Shown here in pieces: positions 1,882 through 11,868 of a stretch of DNA of 64,000 nucleotides. The stretch's first letter is position 1, and the number at the start of each line of letters is the position of its first letter. A program made the translations under genes and the position numbers. The notes beneath the pieces were generated by a model. It had not been told where the DNA came from. It saw only the letters and a program-made list of their open reading frames with translations, and searched no databases. Origin of the DNA: a virus (taxonomy: Duplodnaviria; Heunggongvirae; Uroviricota; Caudoviricetes); the IMG/VR virus record IMGVR_UViG_3300045988_142422; one strand, 5' to 3'.

Positions 1882-4800
1882 ATGTGGTACAGGGAAGGTA
1901 CTATCACATTTACACAGGGTAGCAATACTCTGGTTGGGGCAGGGACAGCCTGGAACGTAACAGCTAATGGTGTGTTGCCGGGGATGATCGTCATTGGCCC
2001 CGACAATAAGCTGTATGAGATCAAGCGCGTAACCAGTGATACGAACATTGTTCTCTCAGAACCTTATACCGGCGAAACTCAGTCTGAAGTTCCGTGCCGA
2101 ATCATTACGACCTATGAAGGCGACTTAACACAGTTTAGCGCGCGCTTTACAGCACTAATGTCGCGTATGTCGGCTGATTCCAAGTCTATGCGCAGTTGGT
2201 TGACTGCTCTGGATGAGGTGACAATCGAGCGTGAAGACGGTACAGAAGTAACCGTTAAGCCGCTAATGCAGATCGTCAACGAGCACAACGAAAACGTTGA
2301 GTGGTATAAAAATAACACTGACGCGATTGATGCTGCTGGCGACAAAGCTCGTGAGGCGGCGGCCAGTGCTGCCGCAGCAGCAGAAAGCGCCAATACCGCT
2401 GGAGAAAAAGCCTCTCAAGCGTCTCAAAGTGTATCCGCTGCGGCATCCTCACAAAGTGCCGCAAGTGCGAGTGCAACTGCTGCGAAAAAATCTGAAACGA
2501 ATGCCGCAGCGTCACAACAATCAGCAGCCACTTCTGCATCCACCGCGACCACGAAAGCGTCAGAAGCTGCCACCTCAGCCCGGGATGCGGCGGCCTCAAA
2601 AGAGGCAGCGAAATCATCAGAAACGAACGCATCCTTGAGCGCCAGTAGCGCAGCTTCCTCGGCAACGGCGGCAGGAAATTCCGCGAAGGCGGCAAAAACG
2701 TCCGAGACGAACGCCAGGTCTTCTGAGACGGCAGCGGGACAGAGCGCCTCAGCTGCGGCAGGCTCAAAAACAGCGGCTGCGTCGTCTGCCAGTGCCGCGT
2801 CAACAAGTGCCGGGCAGGCCTCAGCCAGTGCCACCGCCGCCGGAAAATCGGCAGAAAGTGCCGCATCGTCTGCTTCAACAGCCACAACGAAGGCTGGCGA
2901 AGCCACTGAACAGGCCAGCGCAGCAGCGAGGTCTGCTTCCGCAGCGAAGACATCCGAAACGAACGCGAAAGCGTCGGAAACCAGCGCAGAATCCTCAAAA
3001 ACGGCTGCCGCATCGTCCGCCAGTTCGGCGGCGTCATCGGCATCATCTGCGTCTGCTTCAAAAGATGAGGCGACCAGACAGGCGTCAGCAGCGAAGGGCA
3101 GTGCCACGACGGCATCCACGAAAGCAACAGAGGCGGCAGGCAGTGCGACGGCAGCATCTCAGAGCAAAACTGCTGCTGAATCCGCTGCGACCCGTGCGGA
3201 AGCTGCTGCTGATCGTGCTGAAGAGATTGCCGGTGCAGTTGCGATGGAAGACGCAAGCCTTACAACTAAAGGTGTTGTGAAACTTAGCAGTGCTGTCGAC
3301 AGCACCAGTGAATCGCTGGCCGCAACGCCAAAAGCAGTTAAAGCAGCCAATGACAATGCGAATAGCAGGGTGCCATCTAACCGAAAAGTTAACGGTAAAG
3401 CACTGACTGCGGATATCACATTAACGCCGAAAGATATTGGTACTTTAAATTCAGTAACGATGTCTTTCTCTGGCGGGGCAGGGTGGTTCAAACTGGCTAC
3501 GGTTACCATGCCACAAGCGAGTTCCATCGTTTACATCGCATTGATTGGTGGCGCTGGTTACAACGTCGGCTCCCCACATCAGGCAGGTATTTCAGAACTG
3601 GTTCTACGAGCAGGCAATGGAAACCCCAAAGGGATTACAGGTGCTTTGTGGAAGCGTACAGCTGTCGGATTAACGAATTTCGCCTGGATCAACACATCCG
3701 GCGATACATATGATATTTACGTTGAGATTGGCAATTATGCGACTCGTGTAAATATCCATTGGGATTGTACTGCAAATGCGACAGTTTCTATTTATACCTC
3801 GCCAACATATTCAGCGAGTAAGCCTTCCAGCGTTACCGATGGTGTTGTTTATACGATGTATAGCTCACATCAGAAACCTACACCATCAGATATTGGAGCA
3901 CTGCCAACAACCGGAGGAACAGTTTCAGGTCCGTTGTCTGTTACAGGTGGATTAACTGGTTCATTGAATGGTAATGCAAGTACAGCCACGAAATTGCAGA
4001 CGGCAAGATCTATCGGTGGAGTTGTTTTCGACGGTTCTGCAAATATTAACCTTCCAGGTGTAAACACTACGGGTAATCAGAACACCACTGGTAATGCTGC
4101 AACTGCTACAAAACTTCAGACGGCAAGAACTATCGGCGGCGTGAGCTTTGATGGTACTGCGAATATTAATTTGCCTGGTGTAAACACGGCAGGTAATCAG
4201 AATACAACGGGCAACGCGGCTACTGCTACGAAGTTGCAAACAGCGAGAAACATCAATGGTGTTAAGTTTGATGGCTCAGGCGATATCAACATTAATACAC
4301 TGGTATCTCGTGGCCGAGTTACGGCGTTAAGTGGCTCTACTCAGGGTACTGCTGGTATTCAAATGTATGAAGCATATAGCAATAATTACCCAACATCATT
4401 CGGCAATGTTCTGCATATGAAAGGGGCGAGTGCTGCTGGTGAGGGCGAGTTGCTTATTGGCTGGAGCGGAACGGATGGTGCTCATGCACCGGTTTATGTT
4501 CGTTCACGCCGTGATACTTCGACAGCGAATTGGTCTGGTTGGGCGCAGGTCTATACCACTGCTCATAAACCCACAGCGAAAGATGTTGGGGCTGCACAGA
4601 CGTTTAGCGCGTCATACAGTACTGGGGCTGGCAACTGGACTACCGCTGAATTTATCGCATGGCTGAAGGAGCGTGGTGCTTTCGCCGTACCGTATTGGAT
4701 GATGAAAGGCTCTTGGTCATATGCCGACAATAAAATTATCACTGATACAGGTGTCGGCAATATTTGTCTTGCTGGTGCGGTTATCGAGGTTTTAGGTCAC

Positions 4801-6270
4801 GAAGGCGCAATGACCATCCGAGTTACTACGCCTACAACGACAACCGGAGGTGGTATTGCCAGTGCTCAGTTCACCTATATTAATCACGGTAGCGCGTATG
4901 CCCCTGCCTGGCGCAGAGATTACAACACGACTCTCAAACCAACTGCGGCTGATGTTGGTGCGTTGCCGAGCGGTGGCGGCACACTTTCCGGCGCACTCAC
5001 ATTATCTATGGTTGCGCCGAGTGTTCAATTACGAGGGCAAGGTACTGATACCAGGCAGTACATCATGGCTTACAGAACCGATGGTGCTACATCATGGTAT
5101 GTAGGTAAGGCTAACAACGGCTCTGATAGCGCGATGCTCTGGAACTATACGGGGGCAAACGGAGTCGAGTTGGCTGCCGATGGCAATGTGCGCATTAATG
5201 CGAAGGGTAAGCAGTTTACGTTCGCAAACAACGGCAATTTGGGGCTTGTCGCTTCGTTGGATCAAAGTTCTGTTCCACAGGGCACTTACCATCAAGTTGC
5301 TATGAACTCTGGAACCAGAGGTGCTAAATCCTATCTTCGTAAGTTCAGGGGTGGGAACGCAGATACCGTCTGGCATGAAACCGTTCAAGACGGAAATTAC
5401 CGACTTGCTACTGGTGACACTGATTCTCAGGGTGAAATGTACCTTTCGACTTCGGGTTGGGTTCGTTTCCGTGGTGAAGTTGTTTCAGAATCGGCCAATG
5501 GTTTGCGAGCCGCATTCGGTAACTTCGGTTTCTTTATCCGAAATGATGGAACGAACACTTATTTCCTTTTGACAGCTTCAGGTGACAAGTACGGTTCTTG
5601 GAATGGTTTGCGGCCTCTGACTATCAACAATGTCAGTGGCGCAGTGTCAATGAGCAACGGACTAACTGTTGCTGGTGGACTTAATGTAACGAGCGGAAAC
5701 CTGAAAATCTCGACGTCCAGCACATCGTGGATCGACATGAGAGCAGGCGTAGCCCTTTCGAACTCTTCAGCTGTTTCGACGTCATCCGCTTCGGCGATAG
5801 TCCGTCAAGAACACGCCGATCGCCATTTCATTCTTGGCGGTTTGGGTAACTCGCAGTTCGGGATTTACATGATTAACAAATCTCGAACTGCGAACGGCAC
5901 TGACGCTGCCGCTTATCTCCAGAACGACGGCACTTGGGTTTGCGCAGGCAACGGTAGTTTTAATGACGTTTACATCCGTTCCGACCGCCGTAGTAAGCGC
6001 AATATTCGCAAAATTGAGCGGGCGCTCGACAAGCTGGAGCAGATCGAAGGTGTTCTCTACGAGATTCAGGTCTGTGGCCGTTATGAGCAGTCTGGTGGCC
6101 TCATCGCTCAGGATGTCCAGAATGTTCAGCCTGAACTGGTAACGGTCGACCATAACGATCAGTCAGGAGAGCCTCGTCTGCGTCTTAACTACAACGGCGT
6201 TATCGGCATGTTGGTTGAGGCTGTCAAAGAGCTGCGCGAGGAAGTGCGCGAACTGAAGGCAAAAATGTAA
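1882..6270 (+). CDS. Long (L-shaped-type) tail fibre protein with C-terminal intramolecular chaperone (peptidase S74-like) domain
   Basis: 1462 aa; long Ala/Ser/Thr-rich low-complexity tract; repeated NLPGVNTTGNQNTTGNAATATKLQTAR units; C-terminus SDRRSKRNIRKIERALDKLEQIEGVLYEI...LRLNYNGVIGMLVEAVKEL matches the autoproteolytic chaperone module of fibre/endosialidase proteins (from memory). Confidence 0.8.
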   Translation: MWYREGTITFTQGSNTLVGAGTAWNVTANGVLPGMIVIGPDNKLYEIKRVTSDTNIVLSEPYTGETQSEVPCRIITTYEGDLTQFSARFTALMSRMSADSKSMRSWLTALDEVTIEREDGTEVTVKPLMQIVNEHNENVEWYKNNTDAIDAAGDKAREAAASAAAAAESANTAGEKASQASQSVSAAASSQSAASASATAAKKSETNAAASQQSAATSASTATTKASEAATSARDAAASKEAAKSSETNASLSASSAASSATAAGNSAKAAKTSETNARSSETAAGQSASAAAGSKTAAASSASAASTSAGQASASATAAGKSAESAASSASTATTKAGEATEQASAAARSASAAKTSETNAKASETSAESSKTAAASSASSAASSASSASASKDEATRQASAAKGSATTASTKATEAAGSATAASQSKTAAESAATRAEAAADRAEEIAGAVAMEDASLTTKGVVKLSSAVDSTSESLAATPKAVKAANDNANSRVPSNRKVNGKALTADITLTPKDIGTLNSVTMSFSGGAGWFKLATVTMPQASSIVYIALIGGAGYNVGSPHQAGISELVLRAGNGNPKGITGALWKRTAVGLTNFAWINTSGDTYDIYVEIGNYATRVNIHWDCTANATVSIYTSPTYSASKPSSVTDGVVYTMYSSHQKPTPSDIGALPTTGGTVSGPLSVTGGLTGSLNGNASTATKLQTARSIGGVVFDGSANINLPGVNTTGNQNTTGNAATATKLQTARTIGGVSFDGTANINLPGVNTAGNQNTTGNAATATKLQTARNINGVKFDGSGDININTLVSRGRVTALSGSTQGTAGIQMYEAYSNNYPTSFGNVLHMKGASAAGEGELLIGWSGTDGAHAPVYVRSRRDTSTANWSGWAQVYTTAHKPTAKDVGAAQTFSASYSTGAGNWTTAEFIAWLKERGAFAVPYWMMKGSWSYADNKIITDTGVGNICLAGAVIEVLGHEGAMTIRVTTPTTTTGGGIASAQFTYINHGSAYAPAWRRDYNTTLKPTAADVGALPSGGGTLSGALTLSMVAPSVQLRGQGTDTRQYIMAYRTDGATSWYVGKANNGSDSAMLWNYTGANGVELAADGNVRINAKGKQFTFANNGNLGLVASLDQSSVPQGTYHQVAMNSGTRGAKSYLRKFRGGNADTVWHETVQDGNYRLATGDTDSQGEMYLSTSGWVRFRGEVVSESANGLRAAFGNFGFFIRNDGTNTYFLLTASGDKYGSWNGLRPLTINNVSGAVSMSNGLTVAGGLNVTSGNLKISTSSTSWIDMRAGVALSNSSAVSTSSASAIVRQEHADRHFILGGLGNSQFGIYMINKSRTANGTDAAAYLQNDGTWVCAGNGSFNDVYIRSDRRSKRNIRKIERALDKLEQIEGVLYEIQVCGRYEQSGGLIAQDVQNVQPELVTVDHNDQSGEPRLRLNYNGVIGMLVEAVKELREEVRELKAKM

Positions 6271-6279
6271 TCAAGGTGA

Positions 6280-7119
6280 ATGGTGAGGGGACACCCTCAC
6301 CAATTCAGGATATTCACATCAAAAAGGAGATTAGATGTGCCAATTGTCGGTGTTCCCGGTTGGATTGGGTCTTCGGCTGTCAGTGTGACAGGCCAGAGAT
6401 GGATGAGTGCGGCTCGAACGGCGGTGCAACTGCCAGCGGCTGGTTCAATGTCTCAAATGGCCGGGCGATCTAAAGAAGTTCAGTACAGCATCGGTGCGAA
6501 TCATAACTACAACAAAGACACACTGATCAACTATTTAAAATCCCAGGGGGCGACGCCAGTCGTTGTTACCATTACAGGGGATCTGGTGTCGTCCAGTAGC
6601 GGCGTGCCATGTTTAGATTTCCCGAGTTCACTTACCAACTCTTATATCAGCCTTGTAATCAACGCAGGTGTGACTGTCTATGGACGCGGTGGCAATGGTG
6701 GTAGTAACGCTGCCGGTGCTGCTGGTGGTAACGCAATTAATAATGGCATCGGTACACGCTTGCGTATTACGAATAATGGTGCAATCGCTGGAGGTGGTGG
6801 CGGCGGTGGCGGCGGTAACAGGGGTAAACTAATATTTGGTGGTGGCGGTGGTCGCCCATTCGGTGCTGGTGGGTCTTCCTCTCATATGAGTTCCGGTGCA
6901 ACTGCTGGTACTATTTCCGCTCCTGGTAAAGGATCTGTTGGTGAGGGGTCTCTTAGTGCATATACAGGCGGTTCGGGTGGTAATGTCGGTGCTGCTGGAG
7001 GAAGATGTAATACTCAAGGTAACGGTACAGAATATAACGGCGGAGCAGCTGGTAAAGCTGTTACTGGTAATGCTCCAACTTGGACTAAAGTTGGGGCAAT
7101 TTACGGCGCTCATGTGTAA
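6280..7119 (+). CDS. Glycine-rich protein of unknown function (possible fibre-associated protein)
   Basis: ORF directly after fibre gene; poly-Gly tracts GGGGGGGGGNRGKLIFGGGGGRPFGAGG; alternative GTG start at 6337 preceded by AAGGAGA. Confidence 0.45.
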   Translation: MVRGHPHQFRIFTSKRRLDVPIVGVPGWIGSSAVSVTGQRWMSAARTAVQLPAAGSMSQMAGRSKEVQYSIGANHNYNKDTLINYLKSQGATPVVVTITGDLVSSSSGVPCLDFPSSLTNSYISLVINAGVTVYGRGGNGGSNAAGAAGGNAINNGIGTRLRITNNGAIAGGGGGGGGGNRGKLIFGGGGGRPFGAGGSSSHMSSGATAGTISAPGKGSVGEGSLSAYTGGSGGNVGAAGGRCNTQGNGTEYNGGAAGKAVTGNAPTWTKVGAIYGAHV

Positions 7120-7193
7120 GTACTTACCTACCAAGTGTGGGCGTTTTATGATATAAAACCGCCATCCCGATTTGACGATTCATGGAGGAAATA

Positions 7194-7517
7194 ATGTCGA
7201 ACGAGATGGCAGGCGTAACGCCAGAGCAGGTAGAGCGCATTGCCGCTATCGTTGCGCGTGAAGTTGTCGGCAAATTAGGTAAGGAGTTGCGTGAGGAAAT
7301 TGGCCAGGAGGTCAACGACCAGCTCAAAACCTACTTTGGCGATATGACGCCTTCGCAACACAGCATTCAGCACTCCAACCTGGACAAACTACTTAATCGG
7401 CTAGACGCCATCTCCAGCGGGTTCTTTGGCGGCATTATCTCAAAGATAACGTCGTTCCTGATTACCGCGCTGCTGCTGGGTCTGGCCGCTTATGGCGTGA
7501 AGAATGGACTGCAATAA
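7194..7517 (+). CDS. Small protein with C-terminal transmembrane helix (holin-like candidate)
   Basis: Second ATG at 7194 preceded by GGAGGA; C-terminal hydrophobic segment GGIISKITSFLITALLLGLAAYGV; sits at head of lysis-like cassette. Confidence 0.4.
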   Translation: MSNEMAGVTPEQVERIAAIVAREVVGKLGKELREEIGQEVNDQLKTYFGDMTPSQHSIQHSNLDKLLNRLDAISSGFFGGIISKITSFLITALLLGLAAYGVKNGLQ

Positions 7518-7530
7518 CAGGAGATCAAGG

Positions 7531-8223
7531 ATGAAAACTCCGAGAGGCATTCGTAATAACAACCCTGGCAACCTCGACAAAGGTTCGCCGTGGCAGGGGC
7601 TAATCGACAACCCTGCCGAACCGCGCTTTTGCACGTTTAAAGACCCTGTTTGGGGGATTCGTGCGCTGGCGGTGACTCTAATTACCTACCACGATAAACG
7701 TCGCGCAAAAGACGGCACAAGTATCGATACCATTCGTGAAGTTATTGAACGCTGGGCACCGCCGAATGAAAACAATACTGACGCCTACATTAATGAGGTG
7801 TCTAAAGCCGTTGGTGTAACCGCAGACATGATCATCGATCTGCATGATTACGACATCCTTCGACCTTTGGTTGAGGCAATCATTCGCCACGAGAATGGCC
7901 GAGGCCCGCTAAAAACGCTGAACACCTGGTATGCGGCAGAAGTTATTGAGGAAGGTCTGCGTCGAGCTGGCGTTGTTAAGCCGGTGAAAACCGTGAAGGC
8001 TGTTCCTGTAACTAAAGAAACCGCAGGCGCAACTGTTACAGCAGGTATTGGTCTGGCGCAGCTGGCCGATGTTATGCCGCAGGTTTCCGCTGCTATGGAT
8101 AAAGCACAAGGTCATATCTCTAGCGGGGATACAGTACGCATCATCTTCGGTATTGCCACTATTGTTGTGGCAGGATTCATTGCCTGGTCGCAGGTAAGAA
8201 AACACCAGAAAGGGATGGTCTAA
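7531..8223 (+). CDS. Membrane-anchored protein with conserved RGIRNNNPGN motif; possible cell-wall hydrolase of the lysis cassette
   Basis: ATG 7531 preceded by AGGAGA; N-terminal motif RGIRNNNPGNL...W.G; C-terminal hydrophobic helix IIFGIATIVVAGFIAW; function inferred from position only. Confidence 0.3.
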   Translation: MKTPRGIRNNNPGNLDKGSPWQGLIDNPAEPRFCTFKDPVWGIRALAVTLITYHDKRRAKDGTSIDTIREVIERWAPPNENNTDAYINEVSKAVGVTADMIIDLHDYDILRPLVEAIIRHENGRGPLKTLNTWYAAEVIEEGLRRAGVVKPVKTVKAVPVTKETAGATVTAGIGLAQLADVMPQVSAAMDKAQGHISSGDTVRIIFGIATIVVAGFIAWSQVRKHQKGMV

Positions 8224-8224
8224 T

Positions 8225-8476
8225 ATGCTAGGCAGCCTGATGACAAAGCTAAAAGTTGCTTTGATTACGCTGGCTGCCGTTCTTTTCGTTCTTGTCGGCG
8301 CTTACACGATGGGCGGGAATGCGGCGCGACGAGCAATGGAAGAGAAGGCAAAACAGGAAGACAGAAAACGACTTCAAAACACAGTGAAAGTGGTGAATGA
8401 GACGAGCAGTAAAATACGTCAGAAAGATGCTTCTGCCGTTCATCGTGAGTTGTATGATAAGTGGGTGCGTCATTAA
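8225..8476 (+). CDS. Rz-like inner-membrane spanin (i-spanin)
   Basis: N-terminal TM segment VALITLAAVLFVLVGAY followed by charged coiled-coil region; overlaps an embedded lipoprotein ORF in another frame. Confidence 0.6.
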   Translation: MLGSLMTKLKVALITLAAVLFVLVGAYTMGGNAARRAMEEKAKQEDRKRLQNTVKVVNETSSKIRQKDASAVHRELYDKWVRH

Positions 8477-8612
8477 ACCACAAACAGCCAGCGTGTTGTT
8501 CTGCGATGGGGCTGAGCCTATCTATATCAGCAATAATGATGTAATGACTGAAGAAACCGAACGCCAAATCCTTTTTCACAATACGATGGGAGAGAGGGTT
8601 TGTGGTTGGTGA
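8397..8612 (+). CDS. Rz1-like outer-membrane lipoprotein spanin (o-spanin), overlapping Rz in a different frame
   Basis: Basic n-region then hydrophobic stretch and lipobox-like ISGC (MRRAVKYVRKMLLPFIVSCMISGC); starts inside the 8225 ORF and extends past it, the classic overlapped spanin architecture. Confidence 0.6.
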   Translation: MRRAVKYVRKMLLPFIVSCMISGCVIKPQTASVLFCDGAEPIYISNNDVMTEETERQILFHNTMGERVCGW

Positions 8613-8644
8613 TGTCGAAGTTCCCCTCAAATGAGGGGAACACA

Positions 8645-9166
8645 TTATTCTTCGAACAATTTTTCGATAGATTTTGTAGGATAGAACAAAGAACGCTCGT
8701 TGTTACCAACCAGCTGGATAAAGCCTAAACTTTTATAAAACGCCTTGGCTTTGTCATTTAACGCCTCAACGAAAAGTCCATGAATGCCTACAGCAAGAGA
8801 TGCATTGTACACAACGCGCATTGCATGTGTTACAAGCATTGAGCCAAATCCTTGACCTTGAAGGGACTTGTCCAAAGCCAGCCTACCCAAAGTAACACTT
8901 GGAACATTCCGATAAGGAACCTTCTTTTGTTTGCTTCTTGAAGGTAAGGACTCCTTTTCAAAACAACTACCTGACAAAGTGTAATATCCTAACACTTTTG
9001 GCCTTTCTTCTTGAGTGCAAAGCACATAAGCACGAAGAATTTTTCCCTCATGCTGCCTTTTTAAGTGGTTGGCTAAAAAGGCGTTTAGTGACTCTTCGCC
9101 GCAATCAAAACCGTTTAGATCATAATCTTTCTCTCCAGAGAAAATCTCTATCGTTGTATTGCTCAC
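8645..9166 (-). CDS. GNAT-family acetyltransferase toxin (TacT/AtaT-like)
   Basis: 173 aa; acetyl-CoA motif LQGQGFGSML; directly downstream of a DUF1778-like antitoxin ORF on same strand. Confidence 0.7.
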   Translation of the reverse strand: MSNTTIEIFSGEKDYDLNGFDCGEESLNAFLANHLKRQHEGKILRAYVLCTQEERPKVLGYYTLSGSCFEKESLPSRSKQKKVPYRNVPSVTLGRLALDKSLQGQGFGSMLVTHAMRVVYNASLAVGIHGLFVEALNDKAKAFYKSLGFIQLVGNNERSLFYPTKSIEKLFEE

Positions 9167-9173
9167 GAGTAAA

Positions 9174-9443
9174 CTACTCCATGCTTTTCAGACGATCAGC
9201 AGCTCGTTTCAGCTTGTCGTTCGGTGCCGGAGGATTGCTTATAGCGTCCATAACCAGATTCCAGGATTCTTCATTCAGAACTAGTCTACGGTGTTGCTCT
9301 ATAACTTTCACGGCACGTTCAGATGCACTGCTAACCATAAACTGAGTAATGCTCTGGTTAGACATTGCGGCAGCTTCCTCGATGATGCTTTTATCGTCAT
9401 CGGTTAATCTCAAATCGATGCGCTGCTTTTTTAGTGCTGACAT
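9174..9443 (-). CDS. DUF1778/RHH-type antitoxin (TacA-like) partner of GNAT toxin
   Basis: About 90 aa from ATG preceded by AGGAGGA (track ORF starts further upstream); sequence MSALKKQRIDLRLTDDDKSIIEEAA...SITQFMV matches DUF1778 antitoxins from memory; 7 bp from toxin start. Confidence 0.7.
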   Translation of the reverse strand: MSALKKQRIDLRLTDDDKSIIEEAAAMSNQSITQFMVSSASERAVKVIEQHRRLVLNEESWNLVMDAISNPPAPNDKLKRAADRLKSME

Positions 9444-9713
9444 GTATTCCTCCTGATGGCCGTGATGTAGGAAGGCCATCAATCTCCTCTGTTCAAACTG
9501 AGTTTTCGACTCAAAAATTACTTTAAAAGGCTATAGCCCATTACGTGTGCATTATCAAATTGTGTACGGCATATCACCGTACTTGTAATATAGAGGTCAT
9601 TGTTACTTTTTTCAACAGACAAATACAAGCTATGATTGCCAATTGTTAATCACAACCTACCATTTAACCTTTACACCGCAGCCGTAGGCATTTAGGCTAT
9701 ATCACATATAAGA

Positions 9714-9726
9714 AAACAAGTTGTTT
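9714..9726. promoter_or_regulatory. Palindromic motif A copy (AAACAAGTTGTTT) upstream of parA
   Basis: Perfect 6+1+6 inverted repeat, 36 nt upstream of parA ATG. Confidence 0.4.
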
Positions 9727-9761
9727 CAGACGATAATTATATACGCAAAGGGAACTCTCCA

Positions 9762-10430
9762 ATGACCAAGATCTTTGTGGTTGGCGGCACAAAGGGCGGG
9801 CCTGGCAAATCCACCGTTGCCCAGCAAATTGCCGTTTGCCTGAAAGTCAAAAAGAAGAAGAAGGTTTATATTACCGATATAGATATTCAGCGCACGACAA
9901 CGAGCTGGTGTGAAGACCGTCGACAGAACGAAGACCTTGAGCTGATTCCTTTTGCATACGTTCAGGATGACATCATTAAGCACCTAAAATCGCTTCAGGG
10001 TAGAGCTGAGTTTGTAGTGGTAGATGCTGGTGGCTTCGACTCCGAAATTCAGCGACAAGCGATGCTGATGGCTGACGTTATCATTATCCCGCTGCGTCCT
10101 AAGCGTCGTGATTTGAAATCTTTACGTGACATCGATCCTATTATCGACAATGTTCGCAATGTAAACGATAAAGTGAAGGTCCGCGCGGTCATGAACCAGT
10201 GCCCGGCTTTGCCATCACAAGTGTCTCGCATTCTGGCGGCTAAAGAGATTGTTGAGACGTTTGGAATCGAGTCTGCGCCAGTCAATCTGTATAACCGCAA
10301 CGTCTATGATGATGCGGAAGAGTCTGGTCGTTCTATCTTTGAAATGACCGGTAGCGAGCGCGACAAAAAGGCGGAAGCCGAGTTTGAAGAATTTGTAGAT
10401 TATCTGTTGAGTCTGGAGGAAGAAGAATAA
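9762..10430 (+). CDS. parA: ParA-family partition ATPase
   Basis: Deviant Walker A GGTKGGPGKST near N-terminus, about 220 aa, followed by small partner gene with ATGA-type overlap. Confidence 0.8.
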   Translation: MTKIFVVGGTKGGPGKSTVAQQIAVCLKVKKKKKVYITDIDIQRTTTSWCEDRRQNEDLELIPFAYVQDDIIKHLKSLQGRAEFVVVDAGGFDSEIQRQAMLMADVIIIPLRPKRRDLKSLRDIDPIIDNVRNVNDKVKVRAVMNQCPALPSQVSRILAAKEIVETFGIESAPVNLYNRNVYDDAEESGRSIFEMTGSERDKKAEAEFEEFVDYLLSLEEEE

Positions 10431-10789
10431 TGTCCATGAAAATGGGTGACCTAGCAAAGCGCAAAGAGCCTGATGCACCGGCTAAGAACACAACTCCTTT
10501 GCGCCAACCAGTCAGACCACAGGGACGCCCGACTCGTGGCAAAGAGAAAATTAAAAGCCGCACAATGTCACTGGAGGACGAATACTTCGAACTGCTGGAG
10601 ATGATGAAGTTCATCCCTCGCTTCGAGAAGTTCACTCGTTCTGACGTGATTCGAGCTGCTATTTTCCATCTTGCGGAGAAGACACCGCAGGAAATCGAGG
10701 ACATCGTGAAACTTAACGAGGCGATCACAGCTGCCGACGTAACGATGCGTACCGATGAAATCAAACGCGAGTTGATGAAGAAGAGTTAA
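10430..10789 (+). CDS. Small partition partner protein (ParB/ParG-like centromere-binding candidate)
   Basis: 119 aa basic N-terminus, start overlaps parA stop (TAATG); position and size typical of type Ib partition adaptor; no motif verified. Confidence 0.45.
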   Translation: MSMKMGDLAKRKEPDAPAKNTTPLRQPVRPQGRPTRGKEKIKSRTMSLEDEYFELLEMMKFIPRFEKFTRSDVIRAAIFHLAEKTPQEIEDIVKLNEAITAADVTMRTDEIKRELMKKS

Positions 10790-10827
10790 GAATAAGGCGC
10801 CAGATGGCGCCTATATTTTAAAGTGGT

Positions 10828-11505
10828 TTATTTATTGCCAGACGGTAATACATAGTAGCGGATTGTAGTACCCTCCATTTCAATAACCTTGAATGCAAGG
10901 TTTTTATATTCGACTTTTGTTTTCGCATCGGAAAGAGGCACTGAAAACTCGGTCTTAGTTTCATCTAAACTTGGGTAGCTTTCGGAATAAATAAATTTAA
11001 GGTCGTCGCCACTTTTGCCATTATAAGAAATAGACTGAACAATCTTTTTCTCTACATGGCAGGGGACATTTTGTGCGAATTTTATGGATATTTCGGAGGC
11101 GTCGAACGTCGTAGTGTTGGGAGGAGATATAGTGTTTTTGACCTTGTCATACTTGACGTTATCAGTGTGGCTCACTACCTGCCCTGTAATGGCCTTCAGG
11201 CCAACAGCTTTTGAGTCTTCAAAGTTCCGGTAGACCCCACCACCAACGTGGCAGTAGTTGCCCGCTTTAATCTCAGACATCGAACCAGAAGCGTTACCAA
11301 GAGTGACCATGTCGGTTTTTAACGTGGACACAAACGTGTTATAAACGACAAGGTCACCCATTTTCGCCTTTGACTCTACGTTAGAGGAAGGCAATATTTC
11401 TTGGGTTAGGATTGGTTTTACAGTGGCATTTTGTTGTGGGTTACTTTGTTGCGCGCAACCGGCTAATAATAAAACTAAAAGTGCCGCTGACTTATTCGCC
11501 TTCAT
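10828..11505 (-). CDS. Lipoprotein of unknown function
   Basis: Signal peptide with lipobox MKANKSAALLVLLLAGC; 225 aa. Confidence 0.55.
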   Translation of the reverse strand: MKANKSAALLVLLLAGCAQQSNPQQNATVKPILTQEILPSSNVESKAKMGDLVVYNTFVSTLKTDMVTLGNASGSMSEIKAGNYCHVGGGVYRNFEDSKAVGLKAITGQVVSHTDNVKYDKVKNTISPPNTTTFDASEISIKFAQNVPCHVEKKIVQSISYNGKSGDDLKFIYSESYPSLDETKTEFSVPLSDAKTKVEYKNLAFKVIEMEGTTIRYYVLPSGNK

Positions 11506-11868
11506 TCTTAATTCCCTTTCTACGTGATTGGTACATTGTTTATTTCTGGACGTTTCTTAAGTTGTAGACGCTATTCTGTGTCTGAGTAATCTACAATAAT
11601 TTGTTACACTTAACAATGTTGCAACCGTCTGGCGTGCAGCTGTTTTGAAGTAGATCTTAAGGTTGCATACCATGAGACTAAAAACTAGGTTGGGTTGGTT
11701 TTTGACCTGCTTCCGTATATAAATACTAAGTTACTTATTATTATTTATACGGAAGCAGGTCTTTTATCTGCTGACTTCCCAGATACATTCCCTTCCGTTT
11801 CCACTTCCAAAAACTGCCACCAGTCGCTATCATCCGCTCATCGTGATAAGTAAGTAACTACCTACCAG

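Follow-up and report, generated by a model that had tools for sequence, protein, structure and literature searches.

What a phage gains from a pair of small genes, predicted to encode an acetyltransferase toxin and its antitoxin and set between lysis and partition functions, is the question raised by this locus. The window, that is, the whole 64,000-nt stretch of DNA analysed here, matches Escherichia phage Cyrano (OV696614.1) at 100% identity; in E. coli LF82, this phage corresponds to the plasmid pLF82 (NC_011917.1). It is a phage-plasmid of the SSU5-like kind that is maintained at ~5.5 copies per cell, forms virions and can be induced by genotoxic stress (PMC9928086), in agreement with a preliminary description of this DNA, in which the carrier was taken to be a phage-plasmid. 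The same description had placed two minus-strand genes with a 7-bp gap at 8645-9443, between the lysis cassette and parA, and the open reading frame listing and the sequence itself bear out this arrangement, with Rz1 extending to 8612 and parA starting from 9762. The two genes form a bicistronic operon, in which the antitoxin gene comes first and is followed by the toxin gene:

7182..8612, plus strand: lysis cassette with holin, endolysin, Rz and Rz1, on one side of the pair
8645..9166, minus strand: toxin gene, GTG 9166 to TAA 8645, 173 aa, GNAT protein assigned to the AtaT/KacT clade
9173..9167: intergenic spacer of 7 nt, from antitoxin to toxin
9174..9443, minus strand: antitoxin gene, ATG 9443 to TAG 9174, 89 aa, ribbon-helix-helix (RHH) protein of the DUF1778/TacA family
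9762..10430, plus strand: parA, divergent from the pair, with a small overlapping gene alongside

The identification of the locus is already known, since it is annotated in ENA OV696614 and published in PMC9928086. The ENA record names the products 'KacT acetyltransferase-type toxin' and 'putative antitoxin', RefSeq uses 'GNAT family N-acetyltransferase' and 'DUF1778 domain-containing protein', and PGAP calls one allele ataT (LC807807). Both genes have been listed among the Cyrano morons, with 'KacT-CYRAN27' named as a toxin-antitoxin pair (Misson et al. 2023, PMC9928086). In the same study, transcription of the two genes in LB cultures of the lysogen was 35- and 60-fold over the local prophage background, and further toxin-antitoxin genes such as HicAB were annotated on Cyrano (PMC9928086).

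The toxin gene product had been described as a 173-aa GNAT protein with the motif LQGQGFGSML, and this motif corresponds to toxin residues 102-111. A profile search, which had been proposed beforehand as a check on the DUF1778 and GNAT folds, found both families in Pfam. The toxin lies above the gathering scores of four GNAT families, PF13508 (E 5.2e-08), PF00583 (E 8.3e-08), PF13673, and PF08445, and it also belongs to the acetyltransferase family phrog_1758 (E 2.3e-52). Among PDB sequences, it matches AtaT over residues 1-172 (6GTS, E 1.4e-79; 6AJM is likewise AtaT) and KacT of K. pneumoniae (5ZGN, E 3.9e-75, and likewise 5XUN). The full-length ungapped alignment with AtaT contains 120 identities in 172 residues (~70%). 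In the NCBIfam search, the two proteins reach only sub-threshold, generic GNAT and RHH models (RimI, MshD, and similar ones for the toxin), and no AtaT- or AtaR-specific model was matched.

The residues on which AtaT activity depends are largely retained. The acetyl-CoA pyrophosphate-binding motif Q/R-x-x-G-x-G/A is present in the toxin as Q103-G-Q-G-F-G108, and both G108 and Y144 of AtaT are identical in the ungapped alignment. Y144 of AtaT, equivalent to Y145 of KacT, is the catalytic residue, and mutation of G108 blocks acetyl-CoA binding (PMC7595197). Mutagenesis has also defined the toxicity residues of AtaT that contact the tRNA acceptor stem, namely F30, H34, R37, R40, R71, S76-K82, Y85, and R95 (PMC7595197). 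Ten of the 13 tRNA-contact residues compared with AtaT are identical in the toxin (F30, H34, R37, S76, S78, K79, K81, K82, Y85, and R95), two are changed conservatively (R71K and K77R), and one undergoes a charge reversal (R40E). Together with W107F, these three changes are the only substitutions among the compared residues. On the basis of the match to AtaT and KacT and the retention of the residues defined by AtaT mutagenesis, the toxin is placed in 'clade A' among the GNAT toxins. The substrates acetylated by the tested members of this clade, AtaT, KacT, and AcaT, are Gly-tRNA together with several hydrophobic aminoacyl-tRNAs (PMC9177977), and the substrates of AtaT itself were measured in two studies (PMC7595197 and PMC9177977). 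Given the substitutions R40E, R71K, K77R, and W107F, the target preference of the Cyrano toxin may deviate in detail from that of AtaT.

The upstream gene had been thought to encode an RHH-like protein of about 90 residues. Its 89-aa product matches PF08681 (TacA1) over residues 8-86 with an E value of 5.7e-26, and the matching PDB chains carry the depositors' name DUF1778. The closest PDB sequences are KacA (E 6.6e-42) and AtaR (E 1.3e-40), to which the ungapped identities are 80% and 76%, respectively. In KacA, R8, D10, and R12 are the DNA-reading residues, and operator binding is abolished by R8A and R12A and weakened by D10A; neutralisation of the toxin involves M65, I68, and Q70 (PMC6698736). 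All three DNA-reading residues are identical in the N-terminal RHH region of the Cyrano antitoxin, and its C-terminal toxin-wrapping region has M65 and I68 as in KacA (two of the three neutralisation residues), with N at position 70 as in AtaR. The start codon deserves a comment. The ENA record gives an antitoxin of 101 aa from ATG 9479, which is probably over-extended. The start of the 89-aa form at ATG 9443 appears better supported because it is aligned with residue 1 of both KacA and AtaR, and ATG 9479 is doubtful because a 1-nt insertion in pXH988_2, a 90-92% variant, shifts this codon out of frame. The RefSeq antitoxin gene in pXH988_2 is 270 bp long.

By analogy with these relatives, a mechanism can be proposed. 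The toxin dimer would transfer an acetyl group from acetyl-CoA to the alpha-amino group on charged tRNAs, the expected clade A targets being Gly-tRNA, several hydrophobic aminoacyl-tRNAs, and the initiator Met-tRNA, and the acetylated tRNAs would be unusable by the ribosome, so that translation would stop. The C-terminal half of the antitoxin would wrap around and block the toxin, while its N-terminal RHH dimers would sit on a palindrome, GTACGG-N7-CCGTAC, at the transcription start, and the toxin2:antitoxin4 complex would repress the operon. Toxicity, tRNA targets, and biological role are what we infer here.

A protein of the GNAT superfamily could also be an ordinary small-molecule or protein acetyltransferase that happens to be encoded next to an RHH regulator and is no toxin at all. 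The functions of GNAT domains are very diverse, the weak, sub-threshold NCBIfam matches point to enzymes such as RimI and MshD, and protein-lysine acetylation has been reported for AtaT itself (PMC7957018). This reading is nevertheless very improbable in view of the 70% identity to AtaT over the full length, with every toxicity residue except R40 kept or conservatively changed, the presence of a cognate DUF1778 antitoxin with a toxin-binding C-terminus, and an operon layout and operator that match those of ataRT. The TacAT/KacAT/AtaRT architecture named in the preliminary description is therefore upheld by the profile matches, by 70-80% identity to the crystallised AtaRT and KacAT proteins, and by the conservation of functional residues and operator. 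Collectively, we are highly confident that the Cyrano operon is an intact toxin-antitoxin system of type II, from the AtaRT/KacAT clade, and that its mechanism is the one suggested by close homology; this confidence does not extend to the biological role.

The regions on both sides of the two genes contain candidate signals for autonomous expression and regulation:

9587..9615, minus strand: sigma-70-like promoter, with the -35 hexamer TTGAAA at 9615..9610, a 17-nt spacer, and the -10 hexamer TATATT at 9592..9587
9564..9582: putative operator, the palindrome GTACGG-N7-CCGTAC, 4 nt past the -10 hexamer
9444..9563, minus strand: 5' leader of ~120 nt, with the Shine-Dalgarno sequence AGGAGG 6 nt upstream of the ATG and, at 9454..9481, a hairpin of 8 bp
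8620..8641: GC-rich hairpin, GTTCCCCTCAAATGAGGGGAAC, resembling a terminator and situated where the Rz1 and toxin genes converge

The promoter agrees with the consensus at 10 of 12 positions and is the best match in the region. Both of its hexamers are kept in pXH988_2, and the -35 hexamer TTGAAA is also found in pF41_1, a plasmid whose pair has 68.6% nucleotide identity to that of Cyrano, despite differing surrounding bases. The putative operator, which reads in full GTACGG-TGATATG-CCGTAC (9582..9564), has no second copy in the 64-kb window, and even with one mismatch allowed, 0.02 matches are expected by chance. The same arms are found upstream of the chromosomal ataR of O157:H7, the pF41_1 pair, and the pXH988_2 allele, and the 7-nt centre varies. 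The upstream regions are otherwise unalignable, and the BLAST matches to ataRT begin at the start codon. In kacAT, the transcription start site lies within a palindromic operator, to which a T2A4 heterohexamer binds with conditional cooperativity (PMC6698736). In agreement with the kacAT operator, the antitoxin or the toxin-antitoxin complex is predicted to bind the palindrome at 9564..9582.

In the leader, the palindrome scan located the hairpin at 9454..9481 immediately 5' of the Shine-Dalgarno sequence, and it is kept in pXH988_2. A regulatory RNA in the ~120-nt leader was considered and rejected: the stability of the leader is like that of shuffled sequence (z -0.37), and pXH988_2, the sole variant available, shows no compensatory change. 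The leader of pF41_1 has a different, longer hairpin in the same place. At the other end of the operon, the terminator scan gave the hairpin at 8620..8641 a 9-bp stem, in which 6 of the pairs are GC; its conservation is 100% both in pXH988_2 and in pTIC, a plasmid on which nothing was found in the literature. From its composition and position, this hairpin may act as a terminator.

Comparison with related elements shows where the pair is inserted. In alignments with SSU5, PhiR41_1, and the Klebsiella phage pJN2-26, similarity ends after the Rz1 stop codon (8612) and resumes at ~9654. Nothing is common to these elements between the two positions, and the pair has its own promoter, operator, and terminator candidates; the intervening segment is therefore regarded as a self-contained cargo cassette:

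8613..9653: cargo cassette of 1041 bp with the toxin-antitoxin pair, flanked by the Rz1 stop codon on one side and by conserved sequence upstream of parA on the other

The description of this segment as self-contained cargo in a variable slot is new here. In SSU5 and PhiR41_1, the slot holds a two-gene module of unknown function, and in pJN2-26 a single unrelated gene (gene 0081). The slot pairs of SSU5 and PhiR41_1 have 31-36% amino-acid identity to each other, compared with 84-97% nucleotide identity in the flanks.

The cassette was found in 145 PLSDB plasmids, mostly of 105-125 kb and non-mobilizable, which come from Escherichia (140), Shigella (3), Enterobacter (1), and an uncultured source (1). 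When the query included the flanks, 600 PLSDB plasmids were matched, among them 256 from Klebsiella and 232 from Escherichia; 140 of the latter have the cassette, whereas none of the 256 Klebsiella plasmids in PLSDB does, though they match the flanks. Only three of 50,697 phage records contain it, most such elements being deposited as plasmids. The cassette is present in 152 of 5,426 complete E. coli genomes, and its hosts include E. coli of soil, livestock, birds, and wastewater. Any match at all was obtained in 1,917 of the 5,426 genomes, mostly to the chromosomal ataRT at ~66% identity, and the places of these matches are chromosomal in 1626 cases and on plasmids in 402. A rough estimate from such summary counts suggests that a chromosomal copy and a plasmid copy coexist in ~110 genomes, a number close to the ~120 expected under independence.

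Sequence divergence within the cassette is informative as well. Relative to pXH988_2, identity is 99.9% and 97% in the flanks, 92.3% in the toxin gene, 94.8% in the antitoxin gene, and 80% in the promoter-leader region, a pattern that is read as mosaic exchange. The codon changes between the two alleles are mostly synonymous (synonymous to non-synonymous, 26:10 for the toxin and 12:2 for the antitoxin), and both proteins are therefore maintained by purifying selection.

With respect to biological role, the addiction of the host to the plasmid prophage is considered the most likely function of the pair, with about an even chance of being correct. In this scheme, cells that lose the plasmid prophage, which is kept at ~5 copies, would cease growth. 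Post-segregational killing and phage exclusion had both been put forward in the preliminary description, each as a possibility. Addiction is rated highest because of the adjacency to parA, the low copy number of the plasmid prophage, the precedent of phd-doc, and the lack of ataRT at its canonical site in LF82. The cassette adjoins the parA partition operon, in divergent orientation, on this low-copy element, and an examination of the canonical livJ-panM site of the LF82 chromosome found no ataRT, which could otherwise neutralise the toxin. In SSU5-type phage-plasmids, toxin-antitoxin systems form part of the shell genome, and in P1-type ones phd-doc is among the persistent genes (PMC7969092). 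The literature on AtaRT and KacAT, the chromosomal relatives, contained no example of replicon stabilisation by either pair. Any stabilising effect may be redundant with that of HicAB and other systems on Cyrano, and spontaneous loss should already be rare at ~5.5 copies with a partition system.

The variability of the slot, and the fast-diverging cargo that relatives carry there, which is typical of conflict genes, would also fit a pair whose main role is abortive infection or exclusion. Infection by a phage or a competing phage-plasmid would shut off host transcription or deplete the labile antitoxin, thereby freeing the toxin and halting translation, and the cycle of the invader would be left incomplete. 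The lysogen expresses both genes (PMC9928086), and phage defence by tRNA-targeting toxins is known from other families (PMC11559606, PMC12409363). However, the PADLOC-DB v2 models match neither protein, nor their neighbours, at E values up to 0.01, a result compatible with a defence role, and full-text literature searches returned no report of defence by any GNAT/DUF1778 pair and no study in which a GNAT toxin-antitoxin pair was tested in a phage-plasmid or against phage. No sequence feature separates exclusion from addiction, and we regard exclusion as the main role as rather unlikely. It appears still less likely that the pair serves conflict instead of plain addiction in the specific sense that aminoacyl-tRNA acetylation is triggered by the arrival of a phage or of a competing SSU5-like phage-plasmid. 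Comparably doubtful is a role as a host-benefit moron, whereby stochastic or stress-triggered release of the toxin would generate non-growing, antibiotic-tolerant persisters and aid the survival of LF82, an adherent-invasive strain, in macrophages. Salmonella TacT reportedly promotes persister formation in macrophages. Both Cyrano genes show autonomous expression in the lysogen and have been classed as morons (PMC9928086), the kacAT paper connects toxin-antitoxin pairs with multidrug tolerance (PMC6698736), and the persistence of LF82 in macrophages is the subject of PMC12931692. The latter work also describes four other macrophage-colonising adherent-invasive strains that have no Cyrano-like plasmid (PMC12931692), and the range of cassette hosts, from soil to wastewater, shows no pathogen specificity, both of which argue against this role.

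The identification of the pair is correct but ordinary, in that the family, its chemistry, structures, and regulation are already well characterised and the Cyrano genes are already published. Three modest points are of note. Cyrano in LF82 offers a tractable system for asking whether a GNAT/DUF1778 pair stabilises a plasmid prophage. Among the SSU5-like phage-plasmids of Escherichia the cassette is common, and it is absent from their Klebsiella relatives, and the Rz1-parA slot emerges as an exchangeable cargo site, the other occupants of which are uncharacterised. Should the conflict reading prove true, the pair would be the first of the GNAT/DUF1778 type shown in phage exclusion, the Rz1-parA slot would be a defence-gene hotspot, and the SSU5_031/032-type pair and gene 0081 of pJN2-26 would be candidate new systems.

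Among known systems, the closest is AtaR-AtaT of E. coli O157:H7 (PDB codes: 6GTS, 6AJM, and 6GTP-6GTR), in which the antitoxin gene likewise comes first, with a spacer of 6 nt compared to 7 nt in Cyrano. The toxins are 70% and the antitoxins 76% identical, G108, Y144, and most acceptor-stem residues are common to both toxins, and both operons are preceded by the palindrome GTACGG-N7-CCGTAC. In contrast, ataRT is chromosomal, between livJ and panM, whereas the Cyrano pair resides on a phage-plasmid; the operator lies ~27 nt from the start codon in ataRT and ~120 nt in Cyrano; the Cyrano toxin has the four substitutions R40E, R71K, K77R, and W107F; and nucleotide identity is ~66%. KacA-KacT of Klebsiella pneumoniae (5ZGN and 5XUN) is similarly close, with an antitoxin that is 80% identical and shares R8, D10, R12, M65, and I68, and with a toxin (E 3.9e-75) that lent its name to the Cyrano protein in the deposited record. 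It was characterised from K. pneumoniae and not from a phage-plasmid (PMC6698736), and the Cyrano cassette occurs in no Klebsiella plasmid of PLSDB. TacA-TacT of Salmonella and ItaR-ItaT of E. coli are more distant relatives with the same two-domain architecture and aminoacyl-tRNA acetylation, and the targets of other clades are preferentially Ile/Leu-tRNA for ItaT (clade B) and Gly-tRNA only for TacT3 and AtaT2 (clade D) (PMC9177977). TacAT and ItaRT differ from the Cyrano pair in belonging to other clades and in their much lower identity. The weaker PDB matches (E 1e-21 to 1e-11), which carry generic acetyltransferase labels, may include TacAT/ItaRT-like pairs. The remaining comparison, with phd-doc of P1, is one of functional analogy only, as both are type II pairs on a plasmid prophage. 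Doc is a Fic-domain kinase and Phd a YefM-type antitoxin, so the protein families are unrelated to those of Cyrano; phd-doc causes post-segregational killing, and addiction, which has been demonstrated in P1, is what the Cyrano pair is proposed to exert.

Judged by sequence comparison, the interval between Rz1 and parA (window 8613-9653) is an exchangeable cargo slot of SSU5-like phage-plasmids, which is occupied in three relatives of Cyrano as follows.

Content of the Rz1-parA slot in the relatives' sequences
SSU5 (L002), 3797-4953: SSU5_031/032, two genes encoding 140 and 233 aa
PhiR41_1 (L005), 2270-3445: two genes encoding 132 and 258 aa, homologous to the SSU5 module
pJN2-26 (L006), 2734-3291: one acidic protein of 185 aa, unrelated to the SSU5/PhiR41_1 module

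The proteins of the two-gene modules of SSU5 and PhiR41_1 share just 36% and 31% identity, whereas the DNA of the slot flanks is 84-97% identical. Pfam and PADLOC searches with this module gave no match. The fast-diverging cargos of the slot may represent toxin-antitoxin or defence genes that are yet to be characterised.

Another content of the slot is found in pTIC (MF554642.1), a 113-kb SSU5-like plasmid, in which aac(6')-Ib-cr, together with 85 bp of upstream sequence, takes the place of the toxin gene and of the antitoxin gene's C-terminal two thirds. The altered segment (2536-3224 of the pTIC sequence, L007) corresponds to window 8648-9336. The shared stop codon marks the exact start of the replacement, the orientation is unchanged, and the replacing and replaced segments are equal in length (689 bp). 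Still present in pTIC are the promoter, operator and leader of the toxin-antitoxin pair, as well as antitoxin codons 1-35 (MSALKK...SITQF-IE*). This replacement may be either natural or engineered; a literature search for plasmid pTIC found no paper.

On the parA side of the slot, the 108 bp upstream of parA (window 9654-9761) are almost invariant among Cyrano, SSU5, PhiR41_1 and pJN2-26, although the flanking genes are only 79-97% identical. Small palindromes lie within this region, such as AAACAACTTGTTT at 9714-9726, and either the promoter and operator of parA or a centromere-like site probably lies here. Two features follow behind parA.

10430-10789, plus strand: CYRAN_29, 119 aa
10828-11505, minus strand: single long open reading frame of window 10786-11589, 225 aa, matching phrog_1353

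CYRAN_29 is labelled 'RelE/ParE putative toxin' in ENA and PMC9928086. Pfam, PADLOC and PDB sequence searches with the protein returned no match, and its sole match is phrog_5111, a family of unknown function. The start of CYRAN_29 and the stop of parA overlap (ATGA), and the gene is also kept behind parA in pJN2-26 and PhiR41_1. The protein seems less likely to be a toxin than a partition partner of the ParB/ParG type. The neighbouring CYRAN_30 is placed by ENA on the plus strand at window 10786-11589. This strand looks wrong. The product of the minus-strand frame has a lipoprotein-like N-terminus, MKANKSAALLVLLLAGC, and the corresponding place in PhiR41_1 likewise holds a minus-strand gene.

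Elsewhere in the window, a plus-strand open reading frame (6280-7119) for a glycine-rich protein of 279 aa with long GGxGG runs lies just upstream of the holin. The Cyrano annotation assigns this region to the final part of a P1 S-like tail-fibre gene of 4 kb.

Within the toxin-antitoxin cassette, one further feature was found directly 5' of the antitoxin Shine-Dalgarno sequence.

9454-9481, minus strand: hairpin TGATGGCC-N12-GGCCATCA

The distantly related pair of pF41_1 has a different, far longer and near-perfect hairpin at the equivalent position (about 2461-2506 of its sequence, L004). The hairpins of the Cyrano and pF41_1 pairs may represent a common means of controlling translation or mRNA stability.
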